Shown here one piece after another: positions 132 to 44,849 of a DNA stretch of 44,849 bases. The stretch lies in IMG/VR virus record IMGVR_UViG_3300048915_000091. The stretch is one strand, 5' to 3'. The notes beneath the pieces were generated by a model, which had not been told where the DNA came from, searched no databases, and saw only the letters and a program-made list of their open reading frames with translations. Within the stretch, counting starts at the first letter, position 1, and every line of letters begins with the position of its first letter. Origin of the DNA: a virus. The position numbers and the translations under genes were made by a program.

Positions 132-434
132 ATGGCAAAGCTAACCAAGAGCCGCGCACGCAAGCCGCTTTGCGAAGGTGAAGTTTCGTTTTCGAACAGC
201 GGAACCCAGGGCGGGCGCGAATACGGGCTTTCGATGGCAACGCGCAACGATGAAGGCGATATTCTCGCATACTTCAACGTCAAGCTTTCGTCTGCCGAAG
301 CCCTTCGCTTCGCTGGATTGATCGCAGGCGGCGAAACGCACGATCCGTTTGAAAGCGGTTATTTCGTCGTCGACAACCGCAAGCCCTGGGAAAAGCTTAG
401 GGCGCTTGCTGACAAGCTGGAAAGGGAAGCGTAA
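132..434 (+). CDS. Hypothetical protein (100 aa)
   Basis: Track ORF. The ATG follows the strong SD-like AAGGGGAAGTGAA. TAATG junction with the next ORF. No family recognised. Confidence 0.65.
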   Translation: MAKLTKSRARKPLCEGEVSFSNSGTQGGREYGLSMATRNDEGDILAYFNVKLSSAEALRFAGLIAGGETHDPFESGYFVVDNRKPWEKLRALADKLEREA

Positions 435-601
435 TGGACGACGCAATTAAGGACTTGTTAGCCCAAGCCGAACGCCTGTTAAGGCGAGCCGATAACGCGG
501 TTGAAAACGCCGCAACGCCAGCCGTACGACAGCGACGCCGCAAGCAACGCAACGCGATCAACGCGGCGTGTAACGCATTATTTCGCGCGACAAAGGCTTG
601 A
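434..601 (+). CDS. Hypothetical small basic protein (55 aa)
   Basis: Read by eye because it is below the track cutoff: MDDAIKDLLAQAERLLRRADNAVENAATPAVRQRRRKQRNAINAACNALFRATKA. The start overlaps the previous stop (TAATG). Confidence 0.35.
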   Translation: MDDAIKDLLAQAERLLRRADNAVENAATPAVRQRRRKQRNAINAACNALFRATKA

Positions 602-626
602 CGACCGATCGAATACGTCGTATTCG
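598..626 (+). promoter_or_regulatory. Sigma70-like promoter TTGACG-N17-TATTCG
   Basis: TTGACG at 598-603, a 17-nt spacer ending CGTCG, and TATTCG at 621-626. Nearly identical to the elements at 4686 and 6084. Confidence 0.55.
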
Positions 627-632
627 TCGTAC

Positions 633-809
633 ATGAACCGCGCCGCTTTCATCGCTGAAACCGTCCTAAGCCTGGGGCTGAACATCGCTTTGCGGCGTTT
701 GGGCGGAAACCCCTGGATGATATGGGGATTACTCGCGTTGAATGAGTTGCGCGGCGCGGCAGTCGTCTATAGGTTCGGCGGCATCGCATGGCGAGCCGTT
801 CACGGCTGA
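633..809 (+). CDS. Small membrane protein (58 aa), possibly on a leaderless mRNA
   Basis: Internal ATG of track ORF 501..809. MNRAAFIAETVLSLGLNIALRRLGGNPWMIWGLLALNEL... has two hydrophobic segments. The ATG lies 7 nt after the -10 hexamer. Confidence 0.45.
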   Translation: MNRAAFIAETVLSLGLNIALRRLGGNPWMIWGLLALNELRGAAVVYRFGGIAWRAVHG

Positions 810-827
810 AGCGAAGGACCGGGCATA

Positions 828-998
828 ATGAACGAACGACGCATTCAACTTGACTGTTGCGACGACGGGCGGCTTTGCGTCTTTGTCGAAGAATTCAAGG
901 GCGGTAAATGGGAGCGCGTCGACAGTCTTCGCGGCGACATGGCGTTCTTAAACCGGCTTCTTTCAACCTATCGGATCGGCCCGCGTCGTGCGGTATAA
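828..998 (+). CDS. Hypothetical small protein (56 aa)
   Basis: Read by eye: MNERRIQLDCCDDGRLCVFVEEFKGGKWERVDSLRGDMAFLNRLLSTYRIGPRRAV. Weak AAGGA-like SD upstream. Confidence 0.3.
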   Translation: MNERRIQLDCCDDGRLCVFVEEFKGGKWERVDSLRGDMAFLNRLLSTYRIGPRRAV

Positions 999-1118
999 CC
1001 CGCGCAACCGCAACGAACTTCGTCGCGAACTGCCGAAGTCGTCGGGCGCTTGGTTCGATCGTCGCATACAAGAGCGAACGAAGCCGATCGGCTTCGAACC
1101 TGAACGTTGGGGGCAGAA

Positions 1119-1607
1119 ATGACGATCGCATATATCGACGACGCAAAGGACGACGAACCCGGCTTCGTGGCGGCTCGCTTGATCGCCCGGCTATGGCTGC
1201 CCGAACCGCGTTACACCCTGGGGACGCCTTCGGGCGGCGTAACGACCGTCGGCGAGCATGAACGCTTGTTCGATGTTGCGGAAGACTTCGGCGACGGTTA
1301 TTGCCATGAATGCGACGTACTCTTGGCAGATTGCCATTGCTTCGACGGCTTCGACTTTGGCGATTACGATCAAGACGCGCCGCAGCATGGTTATCATCGC
1401 GGTTCGGATGGAAATGTTATCGCCTTGTTCGGCAGTTTTCGCGATTGGCACGACAAGGGCGACGGGAATACGTCTCATTACCGCATTCTTTCCGACGCTT
1501 ACGACGCACGTTTGAAAGCGCATAGGGCCGAAGCCAAGTTCGCGTTGTATTCGTTCCTTATCGCCGTGTTCGGTTCGATCGCGCTTGTCGTCTTGACGGC
1601 GCATTGA
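1119..1607 (+). CDS. Hypothetical protein with C-terminal transmembrane anchor
   Basis: Track ORF 1107..1607. I prefer the ATG at 1119 after GGGGG. The C-terminus FALYSFLIAVFGSIALVVLTAH is hydrophobic. Confidence 0.55.
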   Translation: MTIAYIDDAKDDEPGFVAARLIARLWLPEPRYTLGTPSGGVTTVGEHERLFDVAEDFGDGYCHECDVLLADCHCFDGFDFGDYDQDAPQHGYHRGSDGNVIALFGSFRDWHDKGDGNTSHYRILSDAYDARLKAHRAEAKFALYSFLIAVFGSIALVVLTAH

Positions 1608-1640
1608 TCTTCGGCCATAGGGCGACGACAACGAAGGGGA

Positions 1641-2003
1641 ATGCGAATGCCACGGAAGAAGACAGGCGACGCCGCGTCGAAGATCGCCGCCCGCGTGCTG
1701 GCAACCGACAAGCCGGTTCACGCTCACACCAGCGCCCTGACAATCGCGATCCAGCAATGTGGGCTCCCTCTCTCGCCGCGTGCGATCGACAGCTTCGTTG
1801 ACGCCGTGGCGGACGCCCTGGCACCAATGGTCGACGACCTGAAGACGCTTGCCGCGTCGGTGTTGGCGCAGGACGAAACCTCCATTCGTAACGCCGTGCA
1901 TGATGAAATGGCTTCGAAGCTTGAAGCGCATTTGACGCCGCGTTGTACGTGCGGCGAAAGCAAAGGCTTTTGCCCCGTACATGAAGGCGGATCAATCAAC
2001 TAA
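1641..2003 (+). CDS. Hypothetical protein (120 aa)
   Basis: Track ORF. AAGGGGA SD immediately upstream. Confidence 0.55.
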   Translation: MRMPRKKTGDAASKIAARVLATDKPVHAHTSALTIAIQQCGLPLSPRAIDSFVDAVADALAPMVDDLKTLAASVLAQDETSIRNAVHDEMASKLEAHLTPRCTCGESKGFCPVHEGGSIN

Positions 2004-2008
2004 CGCGC

Positions 2009-2026
2009 AAAGGAACCGGGCAAATG
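2009..2026 (+). promoter_or_regulatory. Start-associated sequence AAAGGAACCGGGCAAATG
   Basis: One of five near-identical SD-plus-spacer-plus-ATG blocks. The others are at 3387, 4731, 5571 and 7646. Confidence 0.6.
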
Positions 2027-2353
2027 AAAAAGGCACTATTTTACGCCCTTCGTCGGGCTTTGTATTCGCCGGTAATCGCAGTCACGACGTACAAACCGTC
2101 GGGCCGCTGGCACGGTCGACGCTGCGATTACAACGAAGTAACGCACGGCATATCGTCGGACCTATGCGGACTTTTTGCGACGCAAGAGCAAGCCGAAGCT
2201 TGCCGCGCGCATGTTCGCGAACTTGAAGCCGAATACGATAAAAAGATAAAGGTTCATCGCGACGCAATATCAATCTTGAACCGCGATCAACGTCGCGATA
2301 TCGAAGCGTATATTAAGCACGCGACCGAAGAAGCGGCAAAGGTGCCCGCGTGA
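2024..2353 (+). CDS. Hypothetical protein (109 aa)
   Basis: Track ORF preceded by the conserved start-associated sequence. GTGA junction to the next ORF. Confidence 0.65.
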   Translation: MKKALFYALRRALYSPVIAVTTYKPSGRWHGRRCDYNEVTHGISSDLCGLFATQEQAEACRAHVRELEAEYDKKIKVHRDAISILNRDQRRDIEAYIKHATEEAAKVPA

Positions 2354-2661
2354 ACTTCGCCGAAGCCCGATCCGAAGCCGTACAAGGCGCCTGGATACGC
2401 CACGACGGCATGGCCGAAGGTTCGTACATTTCGTACAACTTCGCCGGGCTGCGCATCAACTTTCCGCATTCGTCGTCCGGCTGGACGCCAACCGACGCCG
2501 ACCTTGCGGCAGATTGGACGATTTGCGGTCCGATGGAAGCGCCGAAGCCTAGGCCCGATCCTTGGCGGAATAAGAAGGGTTATTGCAACAATTGCGGCCA
2601 TTTGCTTTGCGAATGCGATCCGCCGAAACCGCAACGCGACAAATGGGGGCGCGCATTGTGA
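2350..2661 (+). CDS. Hypothetical Cys-containing protein (103 aa)
   Basis: Track ORF. GTG start overlaps the upstream stop (GTGA). C-terminal CNNCGHLLCEC. Confidence 0.5.
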   Translation: MNFAEARSEAVQGAWIRHDGMAEGSYISYNFAGLRINFPHSSSGWTPTDADLAADWTICGPMEAPKPRPDPWRNKKGYCNNCGHLLCECDPPKPQRDKWGRAL

Positions 2662-2831
2662 AACCTTGGCTTGCGAGTTGGATCATTCAACAGGGGCTTG
2701 CGATCGGCGGTATTGCCGCGATCCTTTTCGGCTATTCGACAGCGGGCTTGATTATGCTTGTTGCCGCTTTGGTATTGGATGGCGTTCGGCTTATGATCCT
2801 GGGGGCGCCGCGTCATGATGCTGCCGACTAA
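2658..2831 (+). CDS. Small membrane protein (57 aa)
   Basis: In-frame GTG within track ORF 2583..2831 that overlaps the previous stop (GTGA). VKPWLASWIIQQGLAIGGIAAILFGYSTAGLIMLVAALVL has two hydrophobic helices. Confidence 0.45.
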   Translation: MKPWLASWIIQQGLAIGGIAAILFGYSTAGLIMLVAALVLDGVRLMILGAPRHDAAD

Positions 2832-3024
2832 GGGCGAACTGGACAAGGTTGCGGCGTTGATCGGCGGCGAGGGTACGACCTTCGACGCGCTCCCGCCTGA
2901 AAACCGCGTTCAGGTTATGACGCTCGCGATTGCTGCGAAACACAACGACCTGTTGAACGATATCGATAGTTCGCTTTCGCATGTCGGCAGTTGGTTCGAA
3001 CAATCCAAGATATATTGGCCGTGA
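2815..3024 (+). CDS. Hypothetical protein (69 aa)
   Basis: Track ORF. Short overlap with the upstream ORF. Confidence 0.45.
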   Translation: MMLPTKGELDKVAALIGGEGTTFDALPPENRVQVMTLAIAAKHNDLLNDIDSSLSHVGSWFEQSKIYWP

Positions 3025-3245
3025 CAACGCTTCGCTATACGACGAACGGCAAACAGCTTTTGCTTGACGGTTTGCACCTTGCCGACGTGCGATCGGAACG
3101 CGAGGCGGGCTTGCTTGCGGTTATCCTGAACAGTCGCGAACGTGACCTTGCGCCGGGCCAACGCTTCCCGCATGATGCCCACGGGCAGCGGGGGCAATCG
3201 CCATGTACGAAGACGCCGGATGTACGGGAAAAACCCGATACGTAA
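3021..3245 (+). CDS. Hypothetical protein (74 aa), uncertain
   Basis: GTG at 3021 overlaps the previous stop (GTGA) inside track ORF 2991..3245. It overlaps the better-supported next gene by 43 nt. Confidence 0.3.
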   Translation: MTTLRYTTNGKQLLLDGLHLADVRSEREAGLLAVILNSRERDLAPGQRFPHDAHGQRGQSPCTKTPDVREKPDT

Positions 3246-3388
3246 GCCCAGGCGAAGCGTATAATCGCGTCGTACTCGCCCAACGCAAGCCGCATAAGAA
3301 GCACAAGCGAAATAATCGCGGGCACCTGAAAGTTTACCGTTGCGTTTTCTGTAAAATGTGGCACGTCGGATCGTCCTTTGAGCCATGA
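3203..3388 (+). CDS. Small zinc-ribbon-like protein (61 aa)
   Basis: GGGGG SD 8 nt upstream. The GCTGKTRY...YRCVFCKMWHVG pattern resembles a widespread small phage Cys/His protein (C..RY....C-x2-C-x-WH). Confidence 0.55.
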   Translation: MYEDAGCTGKTRYVSPGEAYNRVVLAQRKPHKKHKRNNRGHLKVYRCVFCKMWHVGSSFEP

Positions 3389-3404
3389 AGGAAACCGGGC
3401 AATG
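3387..3404 (+). promoter_or_regulatory. Start-associated sequence GAAGGAAACCGGGCAATG
   Basis: Member of the conserved SD-spacer-ATG family. Confidence 0.6.
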
Positions 3405-3671
3405 GTTAAGCACGACTTGAAGACGCAACCGCAGTTTTGGGAAGCATTGGTTAACGGTTCGCGACCGTTCGAAGTCCGCCGCAATGATCGGAAATTCTCG
3501 CCGGGCGACGTGCTGATATTGCGCGAATGGACGCCTGAATTCGGGTACACGGGCGAAGAAACTTGCCGCCAAGTGTCATACGTCCTTCGGCATGAAGACT
3601 TCCCCCAGGGCGTACCGATCGGCTTCGTCGTACTCGGCTTCGGCATTATGCAAAGGAGCGACGACGTATGA
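3402..3671 (+). CDS. DUF3850 / ASCH-like domain protein
   Basis: Internal ATG of track ORF 3378..3671, placed after the conserved start sequence. HDLKTQPQFWEALVNGSRPFEVRRNDRKFSPGDVLILREW matches the DUF3850 pattern (H.LK....F.....G.K.FE.R.NDR.F..GD.L.L.E). Confidence 0.7.
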   Translation: MVKHDLKTQPQFWEALVNGSRPFEVRRNDRKFSPGDVLILREWTPEFGYTGEETCRQVSYVLRHEDFPQGVPIGFVVLGFGIMQRSDDV

Positions 3672-3838
3672 CAACGCCGGAAATGCGGGCGCTTATCAAA
3701 GCCGCCGAAGAACTTCGCCAAGATTTGCTAATGCGAGGCGAACACGAAAAAGATGGAACGATTGTCGTGAACGCTTCGCATGGGCGATGGATGCGCTTTT
3801 GCGAGGCTTTGCGCGAAGCAAAGGTTAAGCACGGATGA
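3668..3838 (+). CDS. Hypothetical small protein (56 aa)
   Basis: Read by eye: MTTPEMRALIKAAEELRQDLLMRGEHEKDGTIVVNASHGRWMRFCEALREAKVKHG. ATGA overlaps at both ends. Confidence 0.45.
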   Translation: MTTPEMRALIKAAEELRQDLLMRGEHEKDGTIVVNASHGRWMRFCEALREAKVKHG

Positions 3839-4353
3839 CGCCCGACACACTCGCCAAAAGCGGAACCGAACATTCGCAGCAACGCGCGCTTTTCGCTTGG
3901 GCGAATATGGCACAACGCTTCGGCTTCGCTGCCGCTTGGGATGACTTGTCGTACACGGTTGCGAAACACGCTGAAACGACATACGGGCGACCGGGTTGGG
4001 CAATCCCTCGCGTTGTTATCTTGGCCCGTCTTCACGCAATCCCGAACGGGGGCTATCGCGACAAGATCACGGCTGGCAAGCTGAAGGCCGAAGGCGTCAA
4101 GCAAGGCGTGCCCGACGTGTTCCTTCCGCTGCCCTGCCCGTCGACGATCGGCGGTCACACTCGCTATTGTGGGCTGTACGTCGAAATGAAGCGGCCCAAG
4201 ACCGGAACGCAACGCAAAGGCACGACCAGCGCCGAACAGGATGATTGGATTGCTTACCTTCGGCAAGCCGGATACGCCGTTGGCGTCGTCTTCGATTGGC
4301 GCGAGGCAGCTAGAACAATCGAACAGTATATTCGCGAAGCGGGGGCCGCATGA
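3835..4353 (+). CDS. VRR-NUC domain nuclease (PD-(D/E)XK fold)
   Basis: Track ORF. SQQRALFAW..., IPNGGYRDKITAGKLKAEGVKQGVPDVFL, CGLYVEMKRP and SAEQDDWIAYLRQAGYAV follow the VRR-NUC motif order (PNGG, GvPD, E.K, Q..W). Confidence 0.8.
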   Translation: MTPDTLAKSGTEHSQQRALFAWANMAQRFGFAAAWDDLSYTVAKHAETTYGRPGWAIPRVVILARLHAIPNGGYRDKITAGKLKAEGVKQGVPDVFLPLPCPSTIGGHTRYCGLYVEMKRPKTGTQRKGTTSAEQDDWIAYLRQAGYAVGVVFDWREAARTIEQYIREAGAA

Positions 4354-6480: not shown

Positions 6481-6728
6481 GCGAAGAACGCCGTTGCGAT
6501 AAGTGCGATCGTCTTATTTACCAATGGGGCGCGCATGACGGATTTAACTGCGAAGCTTGGCCCGAAATGGGAATCGGGCAAACGTCGGTTGCATACAAGG
6601 GCTTCGAAGTCGTTCGGTTTAATGGGCGTTGGGCGTATTCGGTCCATGGTCGGGATGAATGGGTTTACGTCGCTTCGCCGGTCGACGCTTTTGCGGAAAT
6701 CGACAGCTTGCACGATCGCAAGGCTTGA
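6477..6728 (+). CDS. Hypothetical protein (83 aa)
   Basis: Track ORF. ATGA overlap upstream and a terminator downstream. Confidence 0.55.
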   Translation: MSEERRCDKCDRLIYQWGAHDGFNCEAWPEMGIGQTSVAYKGFEVVRFNGRWAYSVHGRDEWVYVASPVDAFAEIDSLHDRKA

Positions 6729-6738
6729 CTGCCCAAGG

Positions 6739-6769
6739 GGAGCGCGGCAAACGTCGCGTTCCTCTTTTT
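6739..6769 (+). terminator. Rho-independent terminator
   Basis: GGAGCGCG-GCAAACGT-CGCGTTCC hairpin followed by TCTTTTTG. Confidence 0.7.
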
Positions 6770-6792
6770 GCATAGGGCAGGGGCAAAACAGC

Positions 6793-7461
6793 ATGAACAG
6801 AATTACCGCCGAAGGCTTCGACTATCAGGGCGAAGCCGATAAAACGTGTTCGATCGAATGGGGCGCGCACAAGGTCAATCGCGCGGACTTCCTTGCGCAG
6901 CTTCGGGTTTTCGCCGTAACCGCGCAAATCCTGAACCTTTATAAGAAGCTTCTCTTTCGCGGCAAGCTGCCTGAAGACGTTGGATTGCTTCAGCCGTCGA
7001 ATGCGGCGAGCCTTTTGGACTTCATTCCCGACGCCGACGTTGATCTTGTCCATGGGATCGTCGGCATTGCGACCGAAGCGGGCGAAGCCGTCGAAATCCT
7101 TATTGCGATGATCGAAGGCACGCCGCCCGATCGCGTCAACGCCGTTGAAGAAGCGGGCGATCTTCGTTGGTATATCAACCGCGTGCTTCGTTGGGCGAAC
7201 GTTACCGACGAAGAATGCGAGCGCGCGAACATCGCCAAGCTTCACGGGCGCGGCTTCGCCTTCGGCTTCAATGCCCAGGCGGATAGCAACCGCGACCTTC
7301 AGGCCGAACGCGCGATCTTGGAAAGCGCGACGCTGCCCGGCATTGTCGAACCGCGTACGTCCGATATGGCCGATATGTGCGACGCGGAACGCGCGGGCTA
7401 TCGCGACCCCATGCTTCGGCTTCCGTCGGGCGTGTACGGCGATGAACCCGGCAATGGGTAA
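6793..7461 (+). CDS. mazG: MazG-like nucleoside triphosphate pyrophosphohydrolase
   Basis: Internal ATG of track ORF 6535..7461, after the terminator. HGIVGIATEAGEAVEIL...NAVEEAGDLRWYINRVL fits the all-alpha MazG EEXX(E/D) motifs (EAGE ... EE.GD..WY). Confidence 0.75.
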   Translation: MNRITAEGFDYQGEADKTCSIEWGAHKVNRADFLAQLRVFAVTAQILNLYKKLLFRGKLPEDVGLLQPSNAASLLDFIPDADVDLVHGIVGIATEAGEAVEILIAMIEGTPPDRVNAVEEAGDLRWYINRVLRWANVTDEECERANIAKLHGRGFAFGFNAQADSNRDLQAERAILESATLPGIVEPRTSDMADMCDAERAGYRDPMLRLPSGVYGDEPGNG

Positions 7462-14070: not shown

Positions 14071-14276
14071 TGGGAAAAGCCGAACAAGACGCTTTGAAAT
14101 GGCTTCGCGAACGCGGCGGCGATTGCGCTGTTGCCAAGTCGAAGGCAGGCGGACGCTTCTTCCTGGCGCAAGGCGAAACCGGACCGTTCACATGCGGAAC
14201 CGTTAAAAAGCTTGTCGAAGCGGGTATTGCCGAATTTTACAACGGCAAACAAAGATTGCGATTGGTTTATGGCTGA
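14070..14276 (+). CDS. Hypothetical protein (68 aa)
   Basis: Track ORF. TAATG junction with the portal gene. Confidence 0.45.
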   Translation: MGKAEQDALKWLRERGGDCAVAKSKAGGRFFLAQGETGPFTCGTVKKLVEAGIAEFYNGKQRLRLVYG

Positions 14277-15204
14277 TTTATTCGATATTGTCGTTCGGCG
14301 ACAAATCTACATCGAAGGGCTTAAGCACGCCAAGACCGGCGAATTTGCCGTTATGCTGGCGAAGCTGAGAAGCGAACTCTATAACCGCCTTTCGACCTTT
14401 CAGTACGACGAACTAGGCGACGCGACGAAGGGCGCGCTTAAGGCGTTGATTGCCGATCTTCGCAAGATCGCATCTGATATCTTCGATCCGTATTTGAAGT
14501 CGCTTATCGCATGGCTTGAACGCTTTTGCACGGTCGACGAAGACTTGCTTGCGAAACTGTTCGCGCCTTTCGCGCCGAAGCCGATCGAACGCCCCAATCA
14601 CGATACATTGTGGGCATATATCGTCAATCAACCGCTCGCCGCAACGGGCACCCTGGCATTGCCGTTTTTGACCGCGCAACTTCCGTTGTTGTTCGTCAAG
14701 CTTGAACGTACGACGTTTCAGGCATACGCTAATCGTTCGACGAAAAGCGATTTGATAAAAGCGATCGTCGGTACGCCAAAAGCGGTTAAGCAAGACGGGC
14801 TTATTCGCCAGCTTCAAAACGCCTCGGATGCTGCAAGCGCAACGATCATTCAACACGTTTCAAGCCAAGTCGCGCTAAAGCTAGGTTTGAAGATAACCGA
14901 CGAATACGAATGGGTTTCGGTCCTAGATAGTCACACGACCGAAATTTGCCGATCGCGAAACGGCAACCGCTATAAGTACGGAAAGGGGCCGCTTCCGCCA
15001 GCGCATGTCAATTGTCGGTCGACGACAGTTCCCGTCTTCGCGGATAGCCCGTCTTCGCCGGAAAGCTTTTATGATTGGATCAAGAAACAATCGGACGAAT
15101 TCGTTAGCGACGCCCTAGACGGGCGAAGGGGTTCGATCTATGAACGATCGGCCCCGTTGACGCTTGACGAATACGCGGCAAAGGCGCCTCTAATCGGGCA
15201 ATAA
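14269..15204 (+). CDS. Head morphogenesis protein (Mu F / SPP1 gp7-like)
   Basis: Internal ATG of track ORF 14131..15204. VLDSHTTEICRSRNGNRY...PPAHVNCRSTTVP matches the Phage_Mu_F signature (LD.rT..iC....G..y......PP.H.nCRs). Confidence 0.8.
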   Translation: MADLFDIVVRRQIYIEGLKHAKTGEFAVMLAKLRSELYNRLSTFQYDELGDATKGALKALIADLRKIASDIFDPYLKSLIAWLERFCTVDEDLLAKLFAPFAPKPIERPNHDTLWAYIVNQPLAATGTLALPFLTAQLPLLFVKLERTTFQAYANRSTKSDLIKAIVGTPKAVKQDGLIRQLQNASDAASATIIQHVSSQVALKLGLKITDEYEWVSVLDSHTTEICRSRNGNRYKYGKGPLPPAHVNCRSTTVPVFADSPSSPESFYDWIKKQSDEFVSDALDGRRGSIYERSAPLTLDEYAAKAPLIGQ

Positions 15205-41049: not shown

Positions 41050-43421
41050 TGGCGTTCGATGCAATCCCTTCCGAAATGCGCTTTTACCGCCAATGGATCG
41101 TGTGGCGGCTGGAAGATCAAGGCGGGCCGAAACCGACGAAGGTTCCGTACTCACCTATCGTCGCTGGCGCTAAGGCTGCCGTCGACAAGGCGTCGACCTG
41201 GGGCACGTTTGAAGACGCCTTGCGCGCGTTCGATAGCGGCGCCTTTAGCGGTATCGGCTTCGTCCTTACCGACGATGATCCTTACGTTTTTATCGACCTT
41301 GACGACCCCAAGGGCGACGACGAAATCTTTCAACGTCAACAGCGCATCTTTCACGAAATCCAATCGTACGCCGAACGCTCGCCATCGGGCACCGGCTTGC
41401 ACATCATTGGCAAGGGCAGCATTCCGCGCGGTCGCAAGCGGGCGCAAATCGAAATCTATTCAAACCTTCGCTTCATGACCATGACCGGCGACGTTTATCG
41501 CGACGCGCCGATTATCGAATGCCAAGATGCGGCAATGTTGCTTTGGCATCAAATGGGCGGACCGGCTTCGATCCACCAATACGGCGGCAACGCCGAACAG
41601 AAAGAAGACGACGCAAGCGTTATCGGTAAGGCGCTGTCTGCCCTGAACGGCGACAAGTTCCGCGCGCTGTACGAAGGCGATTGGGAAAGCCTTTACGCCT
41701 CGCAATCTGAAGCCGATTTCGCGCTTGTCGATATCGTCGCGTTTTATACGCAAAACCGCGATCAAATCGCACGCATCTTCCGCGCGTCGAAGCTTGGCGA
41801 GCGCGACAAAGCGAAGCGCGACGATTACGTTTCGTACATGGTGAACAAGTCGTTCGATCGGCAGTTGCCCGAAATCGATATCGAAGGGCTAAAGGTCCAG
41901 TTCGACGACCTTTTGCAGCCGGAAGAACAGATTGAATTGCCGGGGTTCCTGAACGGTAACGGGGCGGTGGAAGGACCAACCGCCCCGACCGATGCGGAAC
42001 CGGGCAGGACCGCGCTTCAGGCGACGCCACAAGTCGCACAAGGCCCTGAAGGCGTCAACCCGTCCGACATAATTTTACCCCCAGGCTTGCTAGGGGAAGT
42101 CGCGAACTTCATTTACGAAGCCGCGCCGCGTCCAGTGCGTGAAATTGCCCTAGTCGGCGCGATCGGCCTTGTTGCCGGTATTGTGGGCAAGGCGTTCAAC
42201 ATATCAGCAACCGGCCTGAATATGTACGTCCTTTGCCTCGCCCCAACGGGCACGGGTAAAGAAGCCATCAACGCGGGCGTATCGAAGTTGATTAGCGCGT
42301 GTCTGCCGACGTGCCCCGTAATTGCCGATTTCGTCGGACCGGGCGAAACACGATCGGACGCGGCGCTTATCAAATGGCTCGCCCGTCAACCTTGCGTGTT
42401 CAGCGTACAAGGCGAATGGGGAATGCGTCTAAAACAGATGGCAAGCCCGTTCGCGAACTCGAACGAAATCGGCGTTAAGAAGGTCGTAATGGACCTGTTT
42501 AACAAGTCCGGTCACGGCAACATCCTAAACCCGATGGCGTATTCGGATAAGGATAAGAACACGCCGCCGATCGCCGCCCCTTCATTTACCCTAATCGGCG
42601 AAAGCACGCCCGAAAAGTTTTACGAAGCCCTTGACGAAGGCATGATTGCCGACGGCTTCCTTCCTCGCTTCCTAACGATCGAATATCAGGGCAAGCGGCC
42701 CGCTATGTCCAAAAGCGCGGCATATGCGAAACCGTCGTTCGCCCTAATCGATATGGTCACCGAACTAACCGCGCACGTCAAACAGGTTATGTCATCGGGC
42801 GGCGTCGTTCAGGTGCGAGCCGATCCATACGCCGAAAAGCTGCTAGACGACTTCGACAAGTTTGCAGATGCCCACATTAACGACGGTCAAGCAAACGAAG
42901 TCGTTCGGCATATGTGGAACCGTGCGCACGTCAAGGCGCTGAAGCTTGCCGCCCTGGTCGCCGTTGGCCAGTACCCGTACGATCCCTGCATTGATATCGA
43001 CGCGGCCCGTTGGGCTTGCGATCTTGTCGCTCGCGATATCGTGTCTGTCATCAACCGCTTTCAAACCGGCGACATTGGCGCTGGCGTCATGGGCACGACC
43101 GAAGCGAAGCAAGTCGCGGATATGGTTCGCGCAATCTCGCGTTGGGCGAAGGACGAAACCGGGCAGGAAGCGGCTAAGTACGGCATACCGGGCAATATGC
43201 ACGCGGCAGGCGTATTCCCGTTGTCGGCGCTAACGCAAAGGCTCTTTCAGCTTGCGTCGTATCGCAACGATAAGGTCGGCGCGACAAATGCGATCAAGCG
43301 CGCATTGCAGCATTTGTTAGATGCCGATGATCTTCGCGAGTTGCCGCGTAAGCAAATGCAAGACACATTCGGAACCGCCGCACGCGCATTCGTAATATCG
43401 AAACCGCAGAATTTTGTATAG
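41049..43421 (+). CDS. Primase-polymerase (AEP) fused to PriCT-like and DUF3987-type helicase/NTPase domains
   Basis: Track ORF of 790 aa. AEP motifs are FIDLDDP and SPSGTGLHI. QSEADFALVDIVAFYT is PriCT-like. Walker A is APTGTGKEA. Confidence 0.85.
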   Translation: MAFDAIPSEMRFYRQWIVWRLEDQGGPKPTKVPYSPIVAGAKAAVDKASTWGTFEDALRAFDSGAFSGIGFVLTDDDPYVFIDLDDPKGDDEIFQRQQRIFHEIQSYAERSPSGTGLHIIGKGSIPRGRKRAQIEIYSNLRFMTMTGDVYRDAPIIECQDAAMLLWHQMGGPASIHQYGGNAEQKEDDASVIGKALSALNGDKFRALYEGDWESLYASQSEADFALVDIVAFYTQNRDQIARIFRASKLGERDKAKRDDYVSYMVNKSFDRQLPEIDIEGLKVQFDDLLQPEEQIELPGFLNGNGAVEGPTAPTDAEPGRTALQATPQVAQGPEGVNPSDIILPPGLLGEVANFIYEAAPRPVREIALVGAIGLVAGIVGKAFNISATGLNMYVLCLAPTGTGKEAINAGVSKLISACLPTCPVIADFVGPGETRSDAALIKWLARQPCVFSVQGEWGMRLKQMASPFANSNEIGVKKVVMDLFNKSGHGNILNPMAYSDKDKNTPPIAAPSFTLIGESTPEKFYEALDEGMIADGFLPRFLTIEYQGKRPAMSKSAAYAKPSFALIDMVTELTAHVKQVMSSGGVVQVRADPYAEKLLDDFDKFADAHINDGQANEVVRHMWNRAHVKALKLAALVAVGQYPYDPCIDIDAARWACDLVARDIVSVINRFQTGDIGAGVMGTTEAKQVADMVRAISRWAKDETGQEAAKYGIPGNMHAAGVFPLSALTQRLFQLASYRNDKVGATNAIKRALQHLLDADDLRELPRKQMQDTFGTAARAFVISKPQNFV

Positions 43422-43640
43422 TATTGTAGGGCGTTTATAGGCTGAAAGCCGCAGAAATCCGCCAATTTGTATGTTTTGTAGGTTGTATGGCCATTGTGTG
43501 ATTGGAGACCATCCCATGCCCGGCCTGATAGTGAATTTCCTCTACCCCTTATATACAAACATACAAAATATACAAAATGGCAGATTTCCAAGGGTTTAGC
43601 TATACAATGATCCATACAATACAATACAAAGGAACCGCCG
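43400..43640. repeat. AT-rich iteron block: TTGTA(T/G) x5 on the left, ATACAA x7 on the right (candidate origin)
   Basis: TTGTA at 43414, 43424, 43467, 43476 and 43483, plus TTGTG at 43494. ATACAA at 43553, 43561, 43570, 43602, 43614, 43619 and 43624. The duplicated unit GAAA(C/G)CCGCAGAA is at 43400 and 43444. Confidence 0.6.
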
Positions 43641-43751: not shown

Positions 43752-43970
43752 ATGTTGGAACCATGGTATATCAAACACGATCGCAAGGTTATCGCGAATA
43801 TGCGCCGCGTTATCGAAGGCAAGGGCGACAACGAAACCGTTCGTTACTTGGGCGATCAACTTCCGGTTCTTGTTTCGGAAGTGAAGCGCCGGATTGTCGA
43901 GCGCGAAGCGCGTATTGAAGCCGATATTGCCAAGTTCAACGAAGTCGGCGGCGATTACGACAAGATGTAA
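43752..43970 (+). CDS. Hypothetical protein (72 aa)
   Basis: Internal ATG of track ORF 43695..43970, after an AAAGGA SD. Confidence 0.5.
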   Translation: MLEPWYIKHDRKVIANMRRVIEGKGDNETVRYLGDQLPVLVSEVKRRIVEREARIEADIAKFNEVGGDYDKM

Positions 43971-43994
43971 TGTGGGCACAAGGAAGCAATATCG

Positions 43995-44546
43995 ATGCAA
44001 GGTGCGAAGGTTGTTCCGATTGATAAGGCGACAGCCGATCGATTGATTGTCGCTAGGCATTATAGCAAGCGCGCTTCGATCTTTTGGAAAGGCTTCGCGC
44101 TTGTGTTCGACGGGCGCGTTTATGGCGTTGTCGTGTACGGGCAGCCTTCTCCGCCTATTCAAAAGCATTCGTTTAAAGATCGCGATTTTCGCTTGTACGA
44201 ATTGTCGCGCCTTGTCATTCAAACAACGAAGCGCAACGCGGCGAGTTACCTTGTCGCGCAAAGTTTGAAGATGCTCGAACAGCCTTGCGCGGTTGTGTCG
44301 TATGCCGATAGCGAACACGGGCACGCGGGCATTGTCTATCAAGCGACGAATTGGATTTACACCGGCGCGACGAAATCGCACGATCATGCCTATCTTGTCG
44401 ACGGCAAGCGCGTTCATCCGATTTCGCTTCGTGACAAAGGGATAACCGATCCGAAGCGATGGGCGAAAGAAAACGGGATCAAGACGTTACCCCCCCTGCG
44501 ACAAACATCGTTATTTCTTCATTTGCGGCAATCGTCGGCAGCGTAA
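43995..44546 (+). CDS. Mom-like GNAT-fold DNA modification protein (as read; probably continues to 44655 after a +1 shift at C7 run 44490-44496)
   Basis: Track ORF. ARHYSKR, ELSRLV, VVSYADSEHGHAGIVYQATNWIYTG match my recollection of the family annotated as Mom-type adenine-modifying enzymes. The +1 frame gives DKHRYFFICGNRRQRKDMLAKLTYPIVAEYPK... Confidence 0.55.
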   Translation: MQGAKVVPIDKATADRLIVARHYSKRASIFWKGFALVFDGRVYGVVVYGQPSPPIQKHSFKDRDFRLYELSRLVIQTTKRNAASYLVAQSLKMLEQPCAVVSYADSEHGHAGIVYQATNWIYTGATKSHDHAYLVDGKRVHPISLRDKGITDPKRWAKENGIKTLPPLRQTSLFLHLRQSSAA

Positions 44547-44651
44547 GGACATGCTTGCAAAGCTGACATATCCGATCGTTGCGGAATATCCCAAGCTTCC
44601 GAAATCGATGTATGAAAACGGCGATTTCGTCGAAATCTTGCACGAAACCGC

Positions 44652-44680
44652 TTGACAGCGAAACGCAATCGTCGTAACCG
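44652..44680 (+). promoter_or_regulatory. Sigma70-like promoter TTGACA-N17-TAACCG
   Basis: TTGACA at 44652-44657, a 17-nt spacer ending ATCGTCG and TAACCG at 44675-44680. Confidence 0.4.
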
Positions 44681-44707: not shown

Positions 44708-44842
44708 ATGCCTTATTCGGAACTCGCCTACTTCGAAGGATACGCCTTCGCTCACATCGCCGCTTTCGAAGAACGCGAACGCCTCGCGCGCAAGAAAGCC
44801 ATTGCGATCGCACATCGCGACCGCCGCAGCCATCGCCGCTAA
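44708..44842 (+). CDS. Hypothetical small protein (44 aa) spanning the repeat
   Basis: Read by eye after GGAAGGAACGAAG: MPYSELAYFEGYAFAHIAAFEERERLARKKAIAIAHRDRRSHRR. Its last 120 nt are duplicated at window positions 1-120. Confidence 0.45.
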   Translation: MPYSELAYFEGYAFAHIAAFEERERLARKKAIAIAHRDRRSHRR

Positions 44843-44849
44843 GGGGAAG
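44723..44849. repeat. Terminal direct repeat, right copy (identical to 1-127)
   Basis: Exact match to the first 127 nt of the window. Confidence 0.95.

Follow-up and report, generated by a model that had tools for sequence, protein, structure and literature searches.

A frameshifted C7 allele of a Mom-family DNA modification gene in a viral genome, and its in-frame C6 counterpart

Mom of bacteriophage Mu (PF25680; PDB entry 8BV8) is a tRNA-dependent DNA aminoacyltransferase that makes N6-carbamoylmethyl-adenine (6-NcmdA). It is reported to move glycine from Gly-tRNAGly to N6 of adenine in double-stranded DNA, after which the adduct rearranges; this updates the biochemistry of the enzyme, which by this account uses Gly-tRNAGly and does not act only as a GNAT protein of the acetyl-CoA type (PMC13219725). 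A helix-turn-helix (HTH)-like insertion in Mu Mom, at residues ~175-209, is essential (PMC13219725). The Mu mom gene is accessory, dispensable, and toxic (PMC7261163). Here we describe a gene of the same family, referred to below as mom, in the IMG/VR virus record IMGVR_UViG_3300048915_000091, of which the whole stretch of 44,849 nucleotides was analyzed and is called the window. In the window, the mom reading frame is interrupted at a run of seven cytosines (C7), while public assemblies contain the same phage with six cytosines (C6) at the site and the gene intact. The reading that fits best, to which we assign a probability of about 0.6, is that C7 is a loss-of-function polymorphism, produced by slippage in a non-essential accessory anti-restriction gene.

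Other described systems resemble the tract itself. Among bacterial systems that vary in phase through simple sequence repeats are the phasevarion mod genes of Haemophilus, Neisseria, and Helicobacter, and the poly-G/C contingency loci of Campylobacter. Streisinger slippage hot spots are found in phage genes, for example at the A-runs of T4 rII. A further system is +1 frameshifting, spontaneous or programmed, by slippage of tRNA-Pro on CCC_C, with sites of the prfB type. In Escherichia coli, sequences of the form CC[C/U]-[C/U] are intrinsically shift-prone, and up to ~1% +1 frameshifting occurs on CCC-C at codon 2, as compared with a background below 0.003%; the background at internal positions is far below the rate at codon 2 (PMC4519876).

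The mom open reading frame (ORF) as it stands in the window, at 43995-44546 on the plus strand, encodes 183 residues, of which 167 are family residues and the last 16 are an out-of-frame tail, LRQTSLFLHLRQSSAA. It contains the motifs HYSKR (residues 22-26), ELSRL (residues 69-73), and SYADSEHGHAGIVYQATNWIYTG (residues 102-124). The homopolymer CCCCCCC lies at 44490-44496 on the plus strand and is the site of a one-base insertion relative to the in-frame C6 allele; past it, frame 0 reads the tail and stops at 44546. The +1 frame, open from 44446 to 44655, translates as ...PPCDKHRYFFICGNRRQRKDMLAKLTYPIVAEYPKLPKSMYENGDFVEILHETA up to its stop codon. The part of this frame that continues the gene, from TGC to the stop (44497-44655, plus strand), encodes the conserved C-terminal 52 residues, which comprise the strand KHRYFFICG, a helix at 180-189, the YPK motif, and a tail. 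The C6 version is in frame across the site, TTA CCC CCC TGC, for L-P-P-C, and removal of one C in silico gives a protein of 219 residues, as compared with 183 for C7. An earlier note, made from this DNA and its reading frames, had described the break at C7, the featureless tail, and the stop at 44546, and both the coordinates and the translation agree with it. Gene callers report, on C7 contigs, an additional ORF of 34 residues (P0122; 44551-44655, plus strand), starting MLAKLTYPIVAEYPK. This orphan, which falls into the same 90% cluster and is carried by the same JGI contigs, is a by-product of the split gene. It was considered as a complement of the truncated protein and ruled out, since it does not contain the KHRYFF strand.

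The product belongs to the Mom family of GNAT-fold proteins. The Pfam Mom model PF25680, with a curated cut-off of 27.1 bits, matches the 183-residue C7 ORF over profile positions 4-165 of 202 with 99.3 bits. A search with the C6-repaired protein of 219 residues extends the match to positions 4-201 of 202 and raises the score to 111.5 bits (E 5.6e-32). PHROG 1384, "Mom-like DNA modification protein" (E 4e-42), scores 122 bits against the truncated form and 145 bits against the repaired form. None of the NCBIfam models matched the mom product. The repaired protein is 30% identical to Mu Mom (E 4e-12), and an hhalign profile comparison with Mu Mom returned a probability of 97.5%. An AlphaFold2 (AF2) model of the repaired protein has a mean predicted local distance difference test (pLDDT) value of 89.8, and a Foldseek search with this model gave chains B and A of the Mu Mom structure (8bv8_B, 8bv8_A) as the top PDB matches, with E 5e-11 and template modeling (TM) scores of 0.64-0.69; generic GNAT acetyltransferases rank below these, at E ~1e-4. 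The recognition from motifs of a GNAT-fold family of Mom-type enzymes, made earlier on the strength of HYSKR, ELSRL, and SYADSEHGHAGIVYQATNWIYTG, is thereby borne out.

The architecture of Mu Mom is recovered in the model. A strand at 121-127 is followed by an insertion made of strands 132-135 and 138-140, helices 142-147 and 153-159, and strand 163-165, and then by strand 169-177. As in Mu Mom, a GNAT core is combined with an HTH-like insertion, here at ~132-165, ahead of the last core strand (PMC13219725 for Mu). The residues required for activity of Mu Mom, H58, Y59, R111, S124, D149, and Y159 in the numbering of Silva et al. 2026 (PMC13219725), which are H48, Y49, R101, S114, D139, and Y149 in that of Karambelkar et al. 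2020 (PMC7261163), align to H22, Y23, R72, S84, D105, and Y115. All six of these are invariant among 35 homologs aligned at 62-74% identity (alignment A1), and all are encoded 5' of the frameshift. Mu Mom and the protein described here thus keep the same activity residues, and the C-terminal RY...YPK motif is common to both.

Differences from Mu Mom are seen as well. The essential R151 of Mu aligns to E107 (residue of P0121, the C6 protein; window 44313-44315), where glutamate is at least 90% conserved in the subfamily, within the motif SYAD-x-E-x-GH-x-G. Mu W181 aligns to R139, and Mu W48 aligns to a position that is not aromatic; neither tryptophan is conserved in the subfamily. Because R151, W181, and W48 are not kept, confidence is lower that chemistry and specificity are identical to those of Mu Mom, although not that the protein belongs to the family; judged from these alignments, the subfamily may differ from Mu Mom in contacts, substrate, chemistry, or adduct. 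Metagenomes contain 1505 proteins of this large subfamily, many of them at 60-74% identity. Among the genomes of 50,697 cultured phages, the best match, from Microbacterium phage WaterT, reaches only 38% identity, and the best match in 185,579 species genomes is 40% identical, so that the Mom subfamily represented here is essentially an uncultured clade.

The region lost by frameshifting is well defined both in the alignment and in the model. Eleven positions, K170, H171, R172, Y173, F174, Y192, Y198, P199, K200, Y206, and G209, are invariant in the 35 homologs and are encoded solely in the +1 frame. The strand at 169-177 (KHRYFFICG) and the helix at 180-189 lie wholly past the shift in the AF2 model, in which the mean pLDDT of 10-residue blocks across residues 161-190 is 88-98. 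The C-terminus aligns to the extreme end of Mu Mom, QYRYIRF...QPYPK, and Mu Mom itself stops at the aligned YPK. In the standard GNAT topology, the strand that follows the insertion is the last core strand of the central sheet. This placement also fits the legend to Fig. 4 of PMC13219725. The C7 product thus keeps H22, Y23, R72, S84, D105, Y115, and the HTH-like insertion, and lacks the last core beta-strand, the next helix, and the invariant YPK motif. A C-terminal strand and YPK motif intact in a single frame are absent from the window and present in the C6 allele P0121. That the +1 frame restores a conserved C-terminus, as had been proposed from the sequence, is confirmed by the invariance of residues such as K170 to F174 and Y198 to K200 and by homologs that read through the site. 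Because a core strand, a helix, and the YPK motif are lost, the C7 product is probably inactive; from the model and the pattern of conservation, it is most likely either misfolded or without activity.

Both alleles are real, and the same phage exists with an intact gene. At least 10 public contigs carry a gene call for the exact C7 product of 183 residues (P0002). C7 is read in Logan assemblies of SRR35925505, SRR35925510, SRR35925514, and SRR35925515 and in JGI assemblies 3300048913 and 3300048914, and the C7 contigs are 100% identical to the window across mom. The exact C6 product of 219 residues (P0121) is present in SRR6185369 (Logan) and ERZ27256655 (ENA). At the level of loci, C6 is represented by L006, L089, and L090 and C7 by L001-L005 and L091. 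One C6 locus, L089, differs from the window by 1 substitution over 16.4 kb plus the one-base indel, and it is 100% identical to the window downstream of mom; another, L090, shows 0 substitutions over 9.7 kb plus the one-base indel. Exact-protein look-ups found none of the products expected from C4, C5, C8, C9, or C10. Exact-pattern scans with variable C length gave no match in IMG/VR or in the JGI metagenome collection, for which reason the allele survey rests on the protein look-ups. In the assemblies, C6 and C7 come from different samples and were never both found in one sample. The accessions of these samples do not appear in the papers searched.

C7 occurs in three genotypes, that of the window and those of L091 and L003. 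Neither L091 nor L003 differs from the window through mom; both depart from it solely downstream, at mosaic junctions. The junction of L091 is marked by a cluster of substitutions at window 3536-3658, while L003 diverges from locus position ~2671, equivalent to window 128, onward. The presence of C7 in three genotypes might be taken as proof of recurrent switching; this was ruled out, as L003 and L091 match the window through mom and descent suffices. The two differ from the window only by downstream mosaic segments, so the C7 allele can be shared by descent, and one C6-to-C7 event suffices to account for the whole distribution of alleles. The co-occurring L003 and L091 (the latter from window 3536-3672 onward) are mosaics with 100% identity from primase to mom, followed abruptly by identity of 87-94% or by other small genes, which indicates recent recombination among related phages in the region of early or small genes.

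Relatives were checked at 80 metagenomic viral loci in IMG/VR plus the two nearest homologs, 82 in all. In 80 of 80 IMG/VR loci mom is intact in a single frame. The C run at the homologous Pro-Pro or Lys-Pro site of these loci is 2-5 bases long, with C5 the maximum, and the two nearest relatives read CCC CCA and CCC CCT. With 80 relatives intact and at most C5 among them, the tract is lineage-specific; it is not a conserved site of recoding or of switching. Lengths point the same way. Among the 120 matches listed, from a total of 1505, 119 are 206 to 280 residues long and cover the C-terminus, and the sole exception is the ORF of the window. Homologs that end where the annotated frame ends, which the earlier note had named as grounds for giving up the longer protein, were not seen among the 120 listed. 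Judged by its relatives, the in-frame state is the ancestral and normal one.

Within the genome, the C7 tract stands alone. It is the sole homopolymer of at least 7 bases in the window and the sole G/C run of at least 6 in the genome. CCCCCC or GGGGGG has 2 overlapping matches, both in the mom tract, versus 12.9 +/- 4.1 expected from shuffles that preserve dinucleotide composition. G/C homopolymers are strongly depleted throughout the genome, where there are eleven C5 and twenty-one G5 runs, 32 in all, and no other run reaches 6. Because CCC makes up 22% of Pro codons and the genome has ~32 Pro-Pro pairs, a single CCC-CCC pair is as expected. Neither conservation of the tract nor an improbable choice of codons was found as a sign that selection maintains or enriches it.

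The sequence of events that we favor would begin with an ancestral in-frame gene having CCC CCC (Pro-Pro), a C6 run probably derived from the C5 of the nearest relatives through one synonymous change. Replication slippage would then have lengthened the run by one C, to C7. Ribosomes translating the C7 allele would leave the family frame after residue 167 and reach a stop 16 codons on, and the resulting product, with catalytic residues and insertion but without the last strand, the helix, and YPK, would most likely be misfolded or inactive. C7 phages would be viable, because mom is an accessory anti-restriction gene, and their DNA is predicted to lack Mom-type adenine modification. An exception might be a small leak of full-length protein, at or below about 1%, through a spontaneous +1 slip of tRNA-Pro on CCC_C or through slippage of RNA polymerase. 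Such a leak is conceivable because CCC-C is intrinsically shift-prone; it is unlikely to be a designed feature. The tract would be a hot spot of mutation and not a switch shaped by evolution. A parallel is seen in hot spots of the T4 rII type, which it resembles in that a one-base gain in the longest such run of the genome breaks a non-essential gene, while the revertant or ancestral allele is found on an identical background. It differs in that the event is known from environmental assemblies and not from laboratory crosses.

Several points weigh against this loss-of-function reading. That the truncated product is inactive is a prediction, drawn from a modeled structure and from sequence conservation. 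No other G/C run of this length is present in the genome, which otherwise avoids such runs; this is also what might be seen if C6/C7 were a reversible ON/OFF switch for a costly or toxic DNA modification enzyme, with both genotypes always present in populations. C7 has outlasted at least two recombination events and is common to three mosaic genotypes, without a secondary lesion or other decay of the OFF allele, and the ON allele, C6, occurs on DNA that differs by 0-1 substitutions per 10-16 kb; this persistence and this background are as compatible with a switch as with a recent knock-out. Homopolymer switching of DNA modification genes is well known in bacteria. By analogy, mom may be counted with the type of gene, concerned with DNA modification, toxic, and dispensable, that is phase-variable there. 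As in the phasevarion mod genes, a homopolymer lies within the ORF of a DNA-modifying enzyme, its length shifts the frame, and alleles one base apart, polymorphic between near-identical genomes, toggle full-length and truncated forms on identical DNA. Modified phages would be restriction-resistant, and unmodified phages would be cheaper or resistant to modification-dependent defenses; for Mu mom, toxicity and dispensability are in line with such a trade (PMC7261163). On the other side, only two lengths are found, the absence of the five other products having been noted above; the alleles come from different samples, and one mutation explains both without homoplasy. The likeness to phasevarions is that of an allele pair between samples. 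Classical contingency tracts are usually at least 8 bases long, and this one has 6 or 7. The tract is not kept in relatives, whose runs are no longer than C5 and none of which is frameshifted, CCC-CCC is not an improbable codon pair, and the gene is borne by a phage and not by a host, unlike phasevarions. We therefore hold a reversible switch to be unlikely, although it deserves more weight than any other alternative. Of the phase-variable tract suggested in the earlier note, the pair of alleles on near-identical DNA stands, while the separate samples, the sufficiency of a single event, the missing lengths, and the short, unconserved tract speak against the rest. The fuller proposal, a contingency locus of a lytic phage that turns Mom-type hypermodification ON and OFF so that the population hedges between modified and unmodified DNA, is doubtful.

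The remaining alternatives would have C7 either as the functional form or as no allele at all. In programmed recoding, a +1 ribosomal frameshift on CCC_CCC_C, or transcriptional slippage, would produce Mom at a set low level and limit a toxic dose. The motif would permit this, as it contains the shift-prone CCC-C (PMC4519876): a +1 slip of tRNA-Pro at either CCC, or the loss of one C from the mRNA, gives the exact 219-residue C6 protein, and C7 is commoner than C6 among assemblies. However, the intrinsic tendency of such sequences to shift was measured at codon 2, with the internal background far lower, and the features that accompany prfB-type +1 sites are missing: there is neither a stop nor a rare codon in the A site, the next frame-0 codon being CTG, which at 13.5% of Leu codons is not rare; no GGAGG-like Shine-Dalgarno (SD) element was seen directly 5' of the tract; and 104 nt downstream fold no better than shuffled sequences (z = -0.09). 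The tract occurs in 0 of 82 relatives, 80 IMG/VR loci are single-frame, and the same phage is also known with an in-frame C6 allele. For transcriptional slippage, moreover, runs of 7 G or C are poor sites in comparison with A/T runs of 9 or more. A programmed slip on CCC_C, one of the explanations offered earlier, is thus unsupported, and we consider it quite improbable. Sequencing error was another. In that case the extra C would be a systematic error of sequencing or assembly, and the phage would be C6 everywhere; homopolymers are classic sites of indel errors, and all C7 contigs may stem from one project (SRR359255xx, IMG 33000489xx), so that a shared bias of library or platform is possible. 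C7 nevertheless recurs in at least 4 separate runs and under at least 2 assemblers (Logan and the JGI pipeline), the C6 sample is consistent across Logan and ENA assemblies, and the 127-bp terminal overlap of the window points to short-read de Bruijn assembly. Short-read de Bruijn data read 7-base runs reliably. An artifact is accordingly very improbable. A natural loss-of-function frameshift allele, which was not among the three explanations of the earlier note, fits best.

Positions 1-127 of the window recur without change at 44723-44849, an overlap of 127 bp between its ends, and related contigs continue straight through the junction. This makes the window a complete, circularly permuted phage genome (44,722 bp), in which mom lies in the middle of an operon and not at a genome end. 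One arm of the genome encodes terminase, portal, major head protein, tape measure, and tail proteins. The other encodes DNA polymerase, helicase, a Cas4-type exonuclease, a single-stranded DNA-binding protein (SSB), a Sak4-like annealing protein, and primase. The ORFs that were scanned did not include an integrase, and no tRNA genes or Rfam families were found in the window. Like Mu mom, the gene described here is an accessory gene of a tailed phage; unlike Mu, which is a transposable phage, this one resembles a lytic siphovirus in its genome, which encodes a DNA polymerase and a primase, and, again unlike that of Mu, its mom gene is frameshifted. No close DNA relative was found among the 50,697 cultured phages. 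DNA similarity is seen to Sphingomonas phages, at 71-76% in terminase and capsid genes, and to Rhodobacter phages, at 78-81% plus a 39-bp match of 97%; because of this distant similarity the host is presumably alphaproteobacterial. Bacterial genomes, in which relatives are at most 40% identical, yielded neither a prophage nor a clue to the host.

Upstream of mom lies the primase gene, then an AT-rich gap laden with repeats, then an unconserved gene of 72 residues. A putative SD-like sequence, AAGGAAG at 43980-43986 on the plus strand, was noted by direct reading 8 nt 5' of the mom ATG at 43995. The 72-residue ORF (43752-43970, plus strand) is co-oriented with mom, ends 24 nt ahead of it, and is called as a gene on all related contigs; the two probably share one transcript. 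A PHROG search with this ORF gave no match, and no homolog of it was found adjoining mom in the 82 relatives. It was considered as a Com-like zinc-finger regulator and ruled out, as it has no cysteines, matches no family, and is not kept beside mom in relatives; unlike Mu mom, the gene here has no Com-like zinc-finger gene upstream.

The AT-rich gap of 328 bp between primase and the 72-residue gene holds, at window 43413-43630, 9 of the 14 ATACAAW heptamers of the genome, where 5.6 +/- 2.2 are expected genome-wide. Two on the left are on the minus strand and seven on the right are on the plus strand. The gap also holds long imperfect inverted repeats; in one example, the 40-nt arms, at 43445-43484 and 43558-43597, show 80% complementarity. 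From these repeats, the iteron-like gap is a candidate replication origin or array for binding a regulator, 5' of the mom operon.

Accessory genes occur elsewhere near mom and in its relatives. Small genes 3' of mom include one for a DUF3850 protein and one with a weak VRR_NUC match (14129-14398 and 14562-15080 in L089), and a MazG-like pyrophosphatase (PHROG 229) is encoded at window 6535-7461 on the plus strand as an accessory gene. In a relative 71% identical (L094, positions 414-4170 of a Logan contig from ERR12084921), mom adjoins genes with Pfam matches to Lar_restr_allev (restriction alleviation), Sequestin, and dCMP/cytidine deaminase, and this gene content suggests an island of anti-defense and nucleotide modification functions.

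The immediate consequence is chiefly one of annotation and interpretation: mom of the window is best listed as a frameshifted allele, or pseudogene, of a Mom-family protein of 219 residues, and the C7 genotype should not be presumed to carry modified DNA. If the tract were a true contingency locus, it would be a phage-side counterpart of bacterial phasevarions, in which modified DNA resists classical restriction yet is costly or toxic and is targeted by modification-dependent defenses; mixed tract lengths, if real, would make this a case of phase-variable anti-restriction in a phage, of real interest to research on phage defense. On the reading favored here, that of a natural loss-of-function frameshift, C6 and C7 on near-identical genomes form a clean natural pair for probing the function of a large, uncultured Mom subfamily.

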